From positions 32,001-96,000 of the forward strand of contig JAVZNC010000002.1 in the NCBI GenBank assembly GCA_038882955.1: 64,000 bases of DNA. Reading direction: 5' to 3'. This document shows positions 56,214 through 60,464 of this stretch, piece after piece. The translations under genes and the position numbers were made by a program. Position 1 is the first letter of the stretch. Every line of letters begins with the position of its first letter. The stretch comes from Candidatus Bathyarchaeia archaeon. GTDB taxonomy: Archaea > Thermoproteota > Bathyarchaeia > Bathyarchaeales > Bathycorpusculaceae. The notes under the pieces are model-generated. The model was not told the DNA's origin, did not search any database, and saw nothing but the letters and a program-made list of their open reading frames with translations.

Positions 56214-57200
56214 CTACCATTTAGGTGAAACAGCATCCAAAATTATCAGAAACATTATTGAGCCCAATGGTATTCCAATGTAGGTTAAGATGTTGAGCAA
56301 AATGTCTGGATCCAACGCGCCTAAGCCTCCGCCAAGCATGCTCATAACCGCAAGCATTATAACCAAAAGCAGTGGTCCAGTCACAAGCAGAGCCACATAA
56401 AACTCTGACAAGATTGATAGTGTGTCTGAAAATTTGCGTAGGCTAATCCTCTTCAGTTTCATGTACTGCGTTGACTTTTCGCGGAGGTAATGTGCCAAGT
56501 TGCCTCCAGAATGTATTGTTGAAATGAAACCTTCAAGCATTTCGCGGAACTTTTCAGATGGCGTCAGCCTAGAAGTTTCTTCAAGAGCAGAAATGACGTC
56601 TAAACCGAAGAGGTTTATGTTTCTAACAATGTTTTTCGCTTCGCTTGTCATTGCCAATGGCGGGGTCAAGTTTGAAAGTGAATAGAAAATCTTTTCTGGA
56701 GAAACGCCCGCACTTGAGAGAATCGCCATATAACCAGTTGTGAACGGCAACTCGTCCTCTAAGTCTCTCTTGACCTTGTCTGCACGGTAAACTGGGTAAA
56801 TGTAAAAGCCAATTATGGAAAAGGCGCAGGCGAACAGTCCTCCGCCGATGCCGAACATGAACGATGGCATTAGCGGAACTCCAAAGCCTAAGAAAAGTAT
56901 TGAAGGAATTATTGCCAATGCTGCTACTAAAAGCAGAATTGCCGTAAAAACTGTTAGGCTAACATACGCCTTAAAACTGACTCTAATTCCAGATTTCTGC
57001 AAGTTCAAGTCTAAATCTTTGAAAAGTGGCAAAAACCGCTCGGTTTTTCCTCCAATAAACTTGTATGCCATCGAATAGAACTCTACTTTCTGTGACTTGC
57101 TGGTTTTTGCAGCAGATTTTTCGCTTATATGTCCTTCGAAAAGCATCTTAAAACGTGTGCAAAAGCGCTCAATTTTTTCCAGAACTTTACTTGTTTTCAT
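56214..57200 (-). CDS. Type IV pilus platform protein (TadB/C, T2SS-F family)
   Basis: ELPF..YMAILSSAG, FGLDVISAL, TPS, SGG. Confidence 0.9.
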   Translation of the reverse strand: MKTSKVLEKIERFCTRFKMLFEGHISEKSAAKTSKSQKVEFYSMAYKFIGGKTERFLPLFKDLDLNLQKSGIRVSFKAYVSLTVFTAILLLVAALAIIPSILFLGFGVPLMPSFMFGIGGGLFACAFSIIGFYIYPVYRADKVKRDLEDELPFTTGYMAILSSAGVSPEKIFYSLSNLTPPLAMTSEAKNIVRNINLFGLDVISALEETSRLTPSEKFREMLEGFISTIHSGGNLAHYLREKSTQYMKLKRISLRKFSDTLSILSEFYVALLVTGPLLLVIMLAVMSMLGGGLGALDPDILLNILTYIGIPLGSIMFLIILDAVSPKW

Positions 57201-58756
57201 TTAAGTCCAACCCTTGCCTTCTGGAAGACACGGTTTGGGTTTGCATAGTACTCGCGAATCACGTTTGCCACGTCTGTGTGGCGTCTTATACCCTCACGAA
57301 CCATCCATTCTAATACTGTTTTTCTCCTATGTAGCTCGCGCCTAACATCATCCTCGCTTATGCCCGATTTGCTCATGCGCTCATCTAAAAGCGCACTGTG
57401 ACCAGAAAAAACGAATTTGTCTTCACGAGGGTTCCAGCGGAAGACATCCTCTGTTACGATATTCTTTTTCTTACGGTCAAATTCTATAACCTCAGTTGTT
57501 GTGGTCGCTCTTCTGGCTGGTCTTCCTTCAATTTCTGTTCTCGTCATAACCATTATGACGTCTGTCATGGCTATAAGCGACTTCGGAATATTCATGGGCT
57601 CGGATTCAAGCCTATTTATCACGGCTTCGACGGACTCTGCGTGTATTGTGCTCATTCCTAAGTGCCCAGTTGCCATCGCTTGGAAAAGTGTATAGGCTTC
57701 TTCTCCTCGTACCTCACCCACTATTATGTAGTCTGGTCTTTGTCTAACAGCCGCTTTTAACAAGTCAAAAAGGGTTATTGTGCCGCTTCTTTTGTCTTCA
57801 TGCCCAAAACCTAAGCGTATGACTGAGGGTATCCAGTTTTCGTGTGGTAGGTTAAGCTCTTGAGTGTCTTCTACGCTTACGATTTTCATTTCTGGCTTTA
57901 TGAACATTGAAAGGCAGTTCAGCATTGTTGTTTTTCCAGCCGCGACGCCTCCAGCTACAATTATTGAGGCTCTGTTTTCTATTATGTACCAGAGGTAGGC
58001 AGCCATTTCCGAGGAGATTGTGTTGAAGGCAATTAAGTCTGAAATCGTGAGCGGGTCAACTCTGAAACGTCTAATTGTGAATGTTGAGCCTCTGCGTGTA
58101 ACCTCGTTTCCATAAGTTAGTTGTATTCTGCTGCCGTCTGGAAGTGAAGCGTCCAATATCGGGGATGCTATTGATATGTTTTTTTCAGATAGGTATGCGA
58201 GGCGTACTATGAAGGAGTTTAGTTCTGCTTCATCCTTGAATATTATGTTTGTTGGTAAGGACTCGTAGATTCTGTGCCAAACGTATATTGGTATGTTTAC
58301 GCCGTCTGCCGATATATCCTCTATGAAGTGGTCTTTCATTAGGGGGTCTATTTTTCCGTAGCCTATGAAGTCCCTTACAATGTAATAAGTGAGTTTGTCA
58401 ACGGATTCTTGTGGGATTTTTAGGCGGTATTTTTTGATTATTTCCTTTGTCTTCTCTATTAGGTAGTTTTCCGCCTTTTCTCTTGTTTCTATGTCTTTTA
58501 AGTTTACGTCAACCTCCTCCATCAAAAACCGCTTTATTTCTTGTAGTTTTTGCTCCTCTTCTTTTTGCAGTGTTGGCTCTATGATCTCATACATTGTTTT
58601 TTGGGTTTCCGGATTTTTGACTATCGCTGCATAAACGTATGGCTCTTTTACTGGGTAAACTTCTCTGAATACTGTTGGTTTTTTTGTTTCTTCTTTCACT
58701 ATTATGCCTATCTCTGCCTGTTCAGTCTGCTCTGTGGCTTTTGGTTTTCTTGGCAT
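57197..58756 (-). CDS. Type IV pilus assembly ATPase (ArlI/VirB11/CpaF family)
   Basis: GGVAAGKTT, EDTQEL, RQRPDYIIVGEVRG, ATGH...HA. Confidence 0.95.
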   Translation of the reverse strand: MPRKPKATEQTEQAEIGIIVKEETKKPTVFREVYPVKEPYVYAAIVKNPETQKTMYEIIEPTLQKEEEQKLQEIKRFLMEEVDVNLKDIETREKAENYLIEKTKEIIKKYRLKIPQESVDKLTYYIVRDFIGYGKIDPLMKDHFIEDISADGVNIPIYVWHRIYESLPTNIIFKDEAELNSFIVRLAYLSEKNISIASPILDASLPDGSRIQLTYGNEVTRRGSTFTIRRFRVDPLTISDLIAFNTISSEMAAYLWYIIENRASIIVAGGVAAGKTTMLNCLSMFIKPEMKIVSVEDTQELNLPHENWIPSVIRLGFGHEDKRSGTITLFDLLKAAVRQRPDYIIVGEVRGEEAYTLFQAMATGHLGMSTIHAESVEAVINRLESEPMNIPKSLIAMTDVIMVMTRTEIEGRPARRATTTTEVIEFDRKKKNIVTEDVFRWNPREDKFVFSGHSALLDERMSKSGISEDDVRRELHRRKTVLEWMVREGIRRHTDVANVIREYYANPNRVFQKARVGLK

Positions 58757-58918
58757 CGTGTTTCCCTTTTTAGAGTGTGGAGTGTCTTTCCTAGATATAG
58801 TGTGTAGGAAGTCTTAATAAGCTATATGCACGCCTAATCTTTACCACGCTTAACACTGAAAAAACAAAAACTAAACAAAATCAAACCTAAAATTAAAGAA
58901 AAACCTTTAGAACAAACT

Positions 58919-58996
58919 CTACTTGTACCGTGCCCTTCTTTTTTGCCGCTTCTTCTTCTGTCTCTTCATCCTCTTCTTTTTCCATTTAGCCCGTAT
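58919..58996 (-). CDS. rpl41e: Ribosomal protein eL41 (eS32) with ATA at the start position
   Basis: (ATA)RAKWKKKRMKRQKKKRQKRRARYK*, 25 codons, matches [25 protein letters not shown]; in-frame TAG two codons upstream. Confidence 0.85.
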   Translation of the reverse strand: MRAKWKKKRMKRQKKKRQKRRARYK

Positions 58997-59020
58997 CTTC
59001 TACACGCTCCATACAAGCGC

Positions 59021-59644
59021 CTATTCTATTGTTGCATGCCTACGCTTTAAATCCTCTTCCGTCCGCCCCATCCTATGCATCAACTCAACAACAAGACTAT
59101 CCAAAAAAACCATACAGTTGTTCTCGAAGACACTTCCAAGTGGAGTTAGGGGCTCCCTCTCGCCCATAATTTGCCTAGCCAAATAATCCTCTTCTCTCGG
59201 CCACCCAGTTTTTGTTCTTCCTTTCACCGTTACTATGTGATCCGCCATTCTTCCAAGCTGGGATTCGGGAAACGATGTTATGGCGATCACCGTTGCGCCT
59301 ATTTCCTTTGCCGCTGCGCTAGCTGTTAAAACCATTTTTGTTGAGCCTGTTCCTGAAATTGCTATTAACAAGTCACCTTTTTCGGCTGCGGGAGTTATGG
59401 TTTCGCCTAGGAAGTAAACGTTGAATCCCAGATTCATGAGGCGCAGTGCAAAGGCTCTTGCGACGAAACCGCTTCTTCCCATGCCGACAATGAATATTTT
59501 CTTGTCTTTCGCTTCTAAAAGCAACTCAATTAGCCTTTCAACTTCCTTCATATTCAGTTCTTCAATTGAGCTTTTTATTCCGGCAATTATTTCGTTTGCC
59601 GCTGCCTTTAACCATTCCAATTTTTCAAGCTCCGAGAAAACCAT
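59021..59644 (-). CDS. hxlB: 6-phospho-3-hexuloisomerase
   Basis: GMGRSG, FALRLMNLG, GETITP, ISGTG, PLGSVFE, RHATIE. Confidence 0.92.
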   Translation of the reverse strand: MVFSELEKLEWLKAAANEIIAGIKSSIEELNMKEVERLIELLLEAKDKKIFIVGMGRSGFVARAFALRLMNLGFNVYFLGETITPAAEKGDLLIAISGTGSTKMVLTASAAAKEIGATVIAITSFPESQLGRMADHIVTVKGRTKTGWPREEDYLARQIMGEREPLTPLGSVFENNCMVFLDSLVVELMHRMGRTEEDLKRRHATIE

Positions 59645-59675
59645 TACAAATGTGTCCCTATTAAAAGTCTTGCGG

Positions 59676-60464
59676 TTAAATGAAACCTAAAAGTTTGCTT
59701 AATGAAGGAATTGCGAATGTTAAACGAATGTAGATGGCTGCGGCTAAAATTCCGATGGTTAGGGCTAGAAGAATAAAATCTTCACTGTGCATCTTCAGAA
59801 CGTAAAGGTTTGTGCGTTTCTTTGTTGCTCCCCACGCTCGGGATTCCATGGCTTCAGCGAGTTCGAGACTTCTTCTTATGGCGCTTATTATGAGCGGTAT
59901 CAATATCGGAATGTAATTTCTAATTCTTTTTAAGAAGTTTCCGCGTTCAAGCTCCAGTCCCCTTGCCTTTTGGGCATCCATTATTGTTTGGGCTTCTTCA
60001 GCGAGCACTGGAACGAAGCGCACTGCCGTTGTGAAGGCGAATGTAAACTCGTATGGCACATGCGTCTGTTCTAGGGCGAGGCTTAAAGTGTCTGGCGAAG
60101 TTGTTAAGAAGAATATTGAGAAGGATTCGACGAGTACTATAAAGCGCAATGTCAATGCTGAGGCATTTTCTAGACTTACCGCTAATGGGTAATGCGTAAA
60201 GAAATACGTTACAACAAAGTTTGTTAGAAAAATTATTGTTGCCAGAAAGGCTGCACCTCGCATAGAACGCATCCATTCACGTTTTACTCTGGCTAATAGG
60301 ACGAGGGGAACTTGCATAACAAACAGCACCATAAGCGGGATAAGCTCGCTAAAAATTATTGCTATCACAAATATTGCACATACATAAATGAACTTTATTC
60401 TAGGATCTAAATCATGAATTGGCGAATGAACCTTCCTAAACTTTAAGCCATCAAAAACGCTCAC
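59676..60464 (-). CDS. ecfT: ECF transporter T component
   Basis: LDPRIK, RFVP, AQKARG, AMESRA. Confidence 0.92.
   Translation of the reverse strand: MSVFDGLKFRKVHSPIHDLDPRIKFIYVCAIFVIAIIFSELIPLMVLFVMQVPLVLLARVKREWMRSMRGAAFLATIIFLTNFVVTYFFTHYPLAVSLENASALTLRFIVLVESFSIFFLTTSPDTLSLALEQTHVPYEFTFAFTTAVRFVPVLAEEAQTIMDAQKARGLELERGNFLKRIRNYIPILIPLIISAIRRSLELAEAMESRAWGATKKRTNLYVLKMHSEDFILLALTIGILAAAIYIRLTFAIPSLSKLLGFI

Follow-up and report, generated by a model that had tools for sequence, protein, structure and literature searches.

Ribosomal protein eL41 (RPL41; eS32 in some PDB entries) is known in eukaryotes as a single basic helix-type peptide of 25 residues, and the euryarchaeal protein of Pyrococcus abyssi, Pyrococcus furiosus and the Thermococci is an archaeal homologue with the same basic helix core. 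Members of the family occupy a ribosomal site among h27, h44 and h45 (bridge eB14). Pyrococcus eL41 is longer, with 37 residues, and its N terminus is extended by 14 residues as far as P-site-linked rRNA modifications, according to the passages available from PMC7005279. The passages available from published surveys confine L41e to Euryarchaeota, Nanoarchaeota and DPANN (PMC3353972, PMC9258230, PMC9932298): Yutin et al. (2012) mapped its origin to Euryarchaeota and Nanoarchaeota and noted that an origin of eukaryotes from TACK does not agree with this distribution (PMC3353972), in the work of Meheust et al. (2022) it occurs chiefly in Thermococci (PMC9258230), and according to Table 1 of a 2023 review Bathyarchaeota, the other TACK phyla without exception and Asgard all lack it (PMC9932298). 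Here we describe an eL41 gene from a hot-spring Candidatus Bathyarchaeia archaeon, located in a stretch of 64,000 nucleotides (assembly GCA_038882955.1, contig JAVZNC010000002.1, positions 32,001 to 96,000), hereafter the window. Its first codon is ATA, and its full-length product would have to be made by initiation at AUA; the same arrangement, with a putative AUA, AUC or AUU start (AUH; ATH for ATA, ATC or ATT at the DNA level), is common to many related Bathyarchaeia genomes.

The gene lies on the minus strand, and the range 58919-58996 comprises its open reading frame (ORF) and stop codon, preceded by the elements listed below:

58922 to 58996, minus strand: coding sequence of eL41, 25 codons, product (I/M)RAKWKKKRMKRQKKKRQKRRARYK; 65 distinct copies have 25 codons, with dN/dS of about 0.03.
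58994 to 58996, minus strand: ATA, codon 1, the putative near-cognate start; aligned to the eukaryotic Met1, with no canonical start back to the upstream stop.
58919 to 58921, minus strand: TAG stop codon of eL41, read from the sequence; in relatives a stop also follows codon 25.
59003 to 59010, minus strand: extended Shine-Dalgarno (SD) element GGAGCGTG, with predicted pairing of GGAG and GUG, separated by one bulged base, to the 16S rRNA 3' end ...GGAUCACCUCCU.
58997 to 59002, minus strand: untranslated spacer TAGAAG of 6 nt, read from the sequence, with an in-frame TAG that closes the frame 5' of ATA.

Read in order on the minus strand, the frame runs through GGAGCGTG (59010-59003), TAG (59002-59000), AAG (58999-58997) and ATA (58996-58994), followed by 24 more sense codons, which begin CGG GCT AAA TGG and end with AAG (58924-58922), and by the terminal TAG (58921-58919). 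The ORF itself is IRAKWKKKRMKRQKKKRQKRRARYK, and the in-frame translation across the region is E*ALVWSV*KIRAKWKKKRMKRQKKKRQKRRARYK*S. The stop codon of the preceding SIS-domain gene (TAG, 59023-59021) shares this frame, so that two in-frame stops stand ahead of the ORF; between the nearer one and Arg2 there are only AAG and ATA, and codon 10 is the sole ATG in the frame. Because the upstream TAG is two codons away and no ATG, GTG or TTG lies in between, the full-length product of the window is, as far as the letters tell, not makeable from any of these three codons, and ATA is the only plausible start. An initial annotation, made from the letters of the window, had already described the 25 codons, ATA at codon 1, the TAG, the ATG confined to codon 10 and an SD-like element 6 nt upstream, and all of them were found in the sequence; it had also assigned the gene to eL41 on the basis of its eukaryotic length and the RAKW.KKRM motif, an assignment that the alignments to solved structures bear out.

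Indeed, in a search of PDB chains with the window protein all 21 sequences at E<=10 were eL41/eS32 chains, and the best matches were eukaryotic 25-residue chains aligned from 1-25 to 1-25 with 17 of 25 residues identical (e.g. 4v6w_Cn, E=0.01), so that the Ile of codon 1 is aligned with the eukaryotic Met1. The identities with the Drosophila (4v6w) and wheat (4v3p) chains include R2, A3, K4, W5, K7, K8, R9 and M10, and the predicted product shares with the eukaryotic protein the character of a single basic helix-type peptide. It differs from it in being archaeal, preceded by an SD element and placed in a prokaryote-type gene pair, in having ATA instead of ATG as codon 1, and in ending with RARYK, where the eukaryotic proteins have R(A/Q)RSK. 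The Bathyarchaeia protein lacks the N-terminal extension found in Pyrococcus, and in score it is closer to the eukaryotic chains than to the archaeal chain 4v4n_Ah, a far weaker match (E=1.2). The Pfam family PF05162 (Ribosomal_L41) is matched by 20 of 22 aligned relatives (E<=1; best E=4.1e-07), whose alignment contains 11 invariant columns, and it occurs once in the whole genome (1,537,843 bases in 31 contigs, completeness 95.6%, contamination 6.1%). No NCBIfam model matched the product, and Rfam gave nothing at E<=1 in 58300-59800. By these comparisons, the gene is that of ribosomal protein eL41, in the short 25-residue form known from eukaryotes and in single copy.

We consider it likely that a 30S subunit placed by the SD element initiates on AUA with Met-tRNAi. 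The small subunit would be positioned by a duplex of 7 bp, formed by GGAG and GUG with one bulge, which would bring the AUA six bases downstream into the P site; there the ordinary initiator tRNA (anticodon CAU) would start despite the third-base mismatch, giving Met1. The strong SD element would offset the weak start codon, and re-initiation by ribosomes that finish the SIS gene, 24 nt upstream, may help, eL41 being in this scheme the second and last of two genes in a unit that opens with the SIS-domain isomerase gene. The genome contains an initiator-like tRNA with a normal CAT anticodon, and among the 33 tRNAs detected by aragorn, an incomplete set, no tRNA with a TAT anticodon and no special initiator tRNA was seen. 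The count of 33 is low for a genome 95.6% complete (the initiator-like tRNA is at G000:C1:241546-241624), and it is likely due to intron-containing or split tRNA genes, typical of the phylum.

The 3' end of the 16S rRNA is ...GGAUCACCUCCU, and the predicted duplex with GGAGCGTG has an energy of -9.4 kcal/mol and ends 5-6 nt before ATA; this value places it among the strongest 11% of the 1361 start sites that a heuristic located in the genome, whose median is -4.4 kcal/mol. Measured from ATA, GGAG has its 5' end at -14, inside the genome peak of -16 to -11 over 1361 long-ORF starts (-14 in 30 cases, -13 in 27 and -12 in 33). A comparable geometry is described in the passages available on the P. 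abyssi aEF1A model mRNA, GGAGGUGAUUUAA-AUG, in which the spacing from the SD element to the start consists of the same six bases as that from GUG to AUA here (PMC6237735). The arrangement GGAGYGTG-N6-ATH occurs once in the 64-kb window, compared with 0.09 expected from shuffles, one match being present also in 9 of 100 shuffles. The spacer is free to vary in relatives; four distinct copies contain a TAG or TAA in it, and in locus L026 it has 7 nt. At window position 59001, hot-spring assemblies X1, X3 and X9 have a plus-strand T/C polymorphism, so that on the minus strand the spacer codon next to GTG reads TAG or TGG; genomes G000, G001 and G002 differ from G003 in this same way.

The mean predicted duplex is -9.6 kcal/mol in 33 ATH copies of relatives versus -6.4 kcal/mol in 29 ATG copies (Mann-Whitney p 4e-10, a value that ignores relatedness). 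Within family f1, to which the window belongs, the GUG half of the element is gone from L053, an ATG copy, and from L011, a TTG copy, whereas L022, also an ATG copy, still has GGAG, with UGA directly after it and hence no bulge, and its duplex is predicted at -8.3 kcal/mol. These data suggest that a strong SD element may compensate for a weak AUH start codon. As for RNA structure, a single-sequence fold of 59040-58900 gave z=-3.19, and the consensus fold of 16 family-f1 loci kept 6 weak pairs with no compensatory change; no RNA structure is claimed. The segment CAUGC/CACGC at 59036-59032, in the SIS 3' end (His-Ala of the conserved C-terminal RHATIE), could pair with G(C/U)GUG of the SD element (59007-59003, minus strand; columns 15-19 with 48-52 of alignment A2); this pairing is weak, with a consensus of -3 kcal/mol and no compensatory changes.

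The start codons of relatives, whose survey had been proposed in the initial annotation, were collected in Bathyarchaeia, and they are not all ATG. From 69 extracted copies of the 25-codon form, 65 are distinct; rows without the KW[KR][KR][KR] motif or the 25-codon length were excluded (L028 and L079, truncated at contig ends, L029, and nine variant-form loci of families f25 and f31). Codon 1 is ATG in 29 copies, ATC in 15, ATA in 13, ATT in 5, TTG in 2 and GCA in 1, ATH thus accounting for 33 of the 65. ATH copies are found in families f1, f3, f4, f8 and f10, ATG copies in f2, f5, f6, f11, f12, f34 and f43 and in two f1 genomes, and both gene neighbourhoods (SIS followed by eL41, and eL41 followed by an aEF-2 paralogue) include copies of the two kinds. 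The single GCA copy is preceded by an ATG at a distance of two codons. In loci L029 (G030) and L078 (G167) of family f7, GCA occupies the codon 1 position and an ATG is found two codons before it (M-Y-A-R-K-K-W...); the product of L029 is, in addition, 9 residues longer at its C terminus. In 7 of the 33 ATH copies (L002, L004, L006, L016, L018, L027 and L032, of families f1, f3, f4 and f10) there is no in-frame ATG, GTG or TTG between the upstream stop and codon 1. A quick maximum-likelihood tree was built from the neighbouring SIS proteins of 36 loci, with 17 of 33 inner forks unsupported; on it, codon 1 requires at least 11 changes among the five states ATG, ATC, ATA, ATT and TTG, and at least 5 among the classes ATG, TTG and ATH; eL41 copies are related, and copy counts are not event counts.

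The ATA of the window itself, the base of which (58994-58996) the initial annotation had wished to see confirmed, is present at codon 1 in all four species of the genus. The public data X1, X2, X3 and X9 are assembled contigs; positions 58970-59006 are covered by X1, X3 and X9 (X9 being labelled metatranscriptomic, 'probably DNA'), and no other letter for codon 1 appears among the differences listed, which gives weak support; the ATA is better supported by its occurrence in the four species of the genus than by these contigs.

The pattern of substitutions bears on whether translation could begin further downstream. The codon-10 ATG is the only canonical start in frame, and Met10 is found in 56 of the 65 copies; if it alone were used, a 16-residue peptide would be made and codons 1-9 would be an untranslated leader. 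Codons 2-9, however, evolve as coding sequence, with 1450 synonymous versus 230 non-synonymous codon differences summed over all pairs of ATH copies. Arg2 is invariant in 65 of 65 copies through six codons (CGA, CGG, CGC, CGT, AGA and AGG), Ala3 is specified by four codons, and Trp5 is present in all 65. Moreover, 9 of the 65 copies have no ATG at codon 10, with K, L, V or Q in place of Met, among them L027, which has Leu at codon 10 and no in-frame ATG anywhere; residue 1 is already part of the alignment to eukaryotic eL41. A start restricted to the internal ATG is, in the light of these data, extremely improbable.

Among the 33 ATH copies dN/dS is about 0.03 (mean dN over mean dS), calculated on the 114 of 528 pairs with finite dS, the rest being saturated. 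A stop follows codon 25 in 65 of 65 copies (TAG 30, TAA 22, TGA 13), and the window differs from G002, which also has the upstream TAG, by 11 codons, all synonymous and none non-synonymous. Codons 2-25 are, by these measures, under strong purifying selection, and the gene is presumably functional and read from codon 2 onward.

With regard to distribution, the protein query found a match in 28 of 41 genomes (that of the window and 40 relatives of its family and order), while the 22-sequence profile A1 found one in 53 of 301 genomes of the class and in 22 of 401 genomes of the phylum, one of them outside the class (G329, from a class with one genome). These genome counts are samples, and the first-pass filter may miss so short a query, hence eL41 is reported as not found and not as absent. 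In an all-species pattern scan, 10 of the matches listed (at least 599) were confirmed, and all were Candidatus Bathyarchaeota or Bathyarchaeia metagenome-assembled genomes.

Several points weigh against the reading of this gene as an eL41 started at AUA. The window protein matches PF05162 with E=0.0087 and 16.4 bits over profile positions 2-25 of 25, under the curated cut-off of 22.3, short biased profiles scoring weakly. Of 48 genomes sampled from its family, 13 match and in 35 the gene was not found (0 of 14 match in genus g17), and because of this eL41 is, on these samples, dispensable in close kin; a Pfam search of five non-matching genomes (G019, G070, G108, G005 and G187) returned nothing credible. 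Many of the family genomes in which no eL41 was detected are larger, 2.0-2.9 Mb. The distribution suggests repeated loss of eL41 in the family. No use of ATH starts was detected elsewhere in the genome by a crude heuristic applied to candidate codons of ORFs of at least 100 codons: an SD motif stands ahead of 3 of 279 ATA, 7 of 273 ATC and 4 of 395 ATT codons, compared with a background of 1.2% and with 12.5% for ATG; eL41 would therefore be exceptional within the genome. The association of ATH with a strong SD element rests on 1 independent pair when only well-supported branches are considered and on 4 over all branches, with significance out of reach. No RNA run covers the locus, and it is from the DNA that we infer initiation at AUA, the N-terminal Met, a common transcript with the SIS gene and the compensating role of the SD element. 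On comparative evidence, the AUA initiation put forward in the initial annotation is favoured by the lack of a canonical start, by the SD spacing and by the AUH codons of many relatives. Finally, in 23 of the 33 ATH copies, the window not being one of them, an in-frame GTG three codons upstream is open, and a 28-residue product in which Ile is an ordinary residue would be possible there.

The last point leads to a different start, at the in-frame GTG within GGAGCGTG, from which a 28-residue eL41 with an internal Ile would be made; in the window this would need read-through of the TAG. Such a start would account for the interchange of ATA, ATC and ATT, which are synonymous Ile codons and whose exchange would then be silent. 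However, a stop follows the GTG immediately in four distinct copies (TAG in the window, G001 and G002, TAA in L032), in which the protein is still fully conserved. TAG is the stop codon of both eL41 and the SIS gene, so it is not a sense codon here, and read-through with pyrrolysine is opposed by the result that no PylS match above the cut-off was obtained in the genome. The 5' end of GGAG is at -5 from the GTG, i.e. with 1 nt between them, outside the genome SD window of -16 to -11; the two codons after GTG are hypervariable (KK, QD, HN, GK, WK and others), in L026 the spacer measures 7 nt, and L016, L018 and L027 have no GTG at all. We therefore judge the GTG start very unlikely, and return to AUA as the probable start.

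The genomes in which eL41 was not found could also be taken as a sign that the locus is a decaying pseudogene or a chance Lys/Arg-rich frame, the real product being the acidic alternative frame at 58985-58893 (MEKEEDEE...), which has a proper ATG. This frame has 52% identity between ATH copies versus 92% for the eL41 frame, and its length to the first stop varies from 6 to more than 39 codons, whereas the 25-codon length of eL41 is kept in all 65 copies. As far as sequence can tell, invariant Arg2 with its six codons, together with the dN/dS of about 0.03, excludes both this possibility and the internal ATG start; we regard a pseudogene as barely credible. The acidic ORF of 30 codons (MEKEEDEETEEE..., 58893-58985, minus strand, +2 frame of eL41) is a by-product of the AAG/AGA-rich coding sequence. 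A frameshift from the out-of-frame ATG at 59013-59011 was also considered and rejected, since that ATG is not conserved, relatives having CTG, TTG or CGG.

Genes of the translation apparatus with a weak start are known in other organisms. Bacterial infC, coding for IF3, starts with AUU, and eukaryotic eIF1 has a poor start context; in these cases the product itself discriminates against weak starts, and the feedback was shown experimentally. Like them, eL41 would be a translation-apparatus gene in which a start that is weak, near-cognate or in a poor position has been retained during evolution, and its AUH codon might be a selected sensor: ribosomes free of eL41 would be less stringent, and the AUH-started eL41 message would be translated better on them, in a feedback similar to that of infC AUU/IF3 and of eIF1. 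Autoregulation of this kind builds on initiation at AUA and does not exclude it. It would agree with the persistence of ATH through many speciations in f1, where the 30 rows of the tree include 2 ATG and 1 TTG, and with the contacts that archaeal eL41 makes with P-site-linked rRNA modifications and with domain III of aIF2-gamma, as reported in the passages available from Coureux et al. (2020, PMC7005279). Conversely, 29 of the 65 copies have ATG, which is common in sister families and re-arose within f1, and is therefore tolerated; there are three ATH codons for each ATG, and by our own reasoning a rough neutral expectation would be about 25% ATG, near the observed value. The available passages on knockout of mammalian RPL41 report effects on elongation and subunit dynamics and contain no start-codon effect (PMC13485352). 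Unlike the products of infC and eIF1, eL41 comes without a demonstrated discriminating role, and the third base of its codon 1 varies freely (A, C or T), with ATG in sister lineages. A sensor function is, on balance, unlikely.

The genes and signals that flank eL41 in the window are the following:

59021 to 59644, minus strand: upstream SIS-domain gene, probable sugar-phosphate isomerase, 207 codons (Pfam PF01380, E=3.6e-19).
58859 to 58915, minus strand: T-rich tract right after eL41, likely an oligo-T transcription terminator (from the sequence, with the function assigned by general rule).
57197 to 58756, minus strand: downstream gene for a type II/IV secretion (FlaI/PilB-like) ATPase, outside the feature and a synteny marker in family f1 (Pfam PF00437, E=5.3e-38).

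The stop of the SIS gene is placed 24 nt before the ATA, and because of this short gap the two genes are probably co-transcribed. Oligo-T runs are a termination signal for the archaeal RNA polymerase, and the T-rich tract at 58859-58915 likely has this role. The order SIS then eL41 is kept in families f1, f2, f3, f6 and f8, while in f4, f5, f10, f11 and f12 eL41 is directly upstream of an aEF-2 paralogue, a translation-related context that is supportive and not defining. In the aEF-2-adjacent loci (L016, L017, L023, L025, L027, L054, L056-L059 and L061-L065) eL41 is at about 1501-1575 and the aEF-2-like ORF about 80-150 nt downstream; this paralogue has 44-55% identity to the main aEF-2 of the window genome, and two aEF-2 homologues are present in many genomes of the order. 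Families f25 and f31 (L073-L077 and L080-L083) have a variant, M(A/S)RKH(H/R)SKK(T/S)KKKKM(K/R)RQKKARQKRRARYK, which shares the C-terminal core ...KKMKRQKKARQKRRARYK with the window eL41 but has no Trp5 and measures 29-30 residues from the conserved M(A/S)RKH start; the ATG of this start is present in all nine copies, and some have more in-frame ATGs a few codons upstream.

In the full-text literature, subscription journals and supplements being outside the search, the passages retrieved contained no report of eL41 in Bathyarchaeia or of an eL41 with a non-AUG start, and the suggestion in the initial annotation that AUA starts had already been noted for archaeal eL41 could not be confirmed there. 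None of 17 exact product forms (the window protein started with I or M, natural ATG copies, upstream-extended and variant forms) is among the roughly 15 billion predicted proteins of a large collection. The forecast that gene callers would miss the gene agrees with this result, although the AUA is not needed as the reason: the natural ATG-started copies of relatives are missing from the collection too, and so short length alone hides the gene. Taken at the level of sequence, this is a real, conserved and unannotated eL41 gene, in which what is new is the occurrence of eL41 with a putative AUH start in Bathyarchaeia, eL41 and near-cognate initiation being already known. The farther-reaching view, that the AUH start is a sensor, a counterpart of infC/IF3 and eIF1, and that the 25-residue protein is a TACK-side, ancestor-like form of eukaryotic eL41, is one that we hold to be improbable.

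The finding has consequences for the way in which very small ribosomal proteins are catalogued, since none of the 17 product forms, including those started with ATG, is in the protein collection, and presence/absence tables obtained from predicted proteomes are therefore unreliable for them; an eL41 of eukaryotic length is now placed in a TACK lineage. If initiation at AUH is true, an essential-type housekeeping gene of archaea would have a clade-wide AUA, AUC or AUU start that has been maintained in evolution. In Archaea the start is chosen by the eukaryote-like factors aIF1, aIF1A and aIF2 on an mRNA positioned by the SD element, and the eL41 gene of Bathyarchaeia would be a natural substrate to study how strict this choice is.

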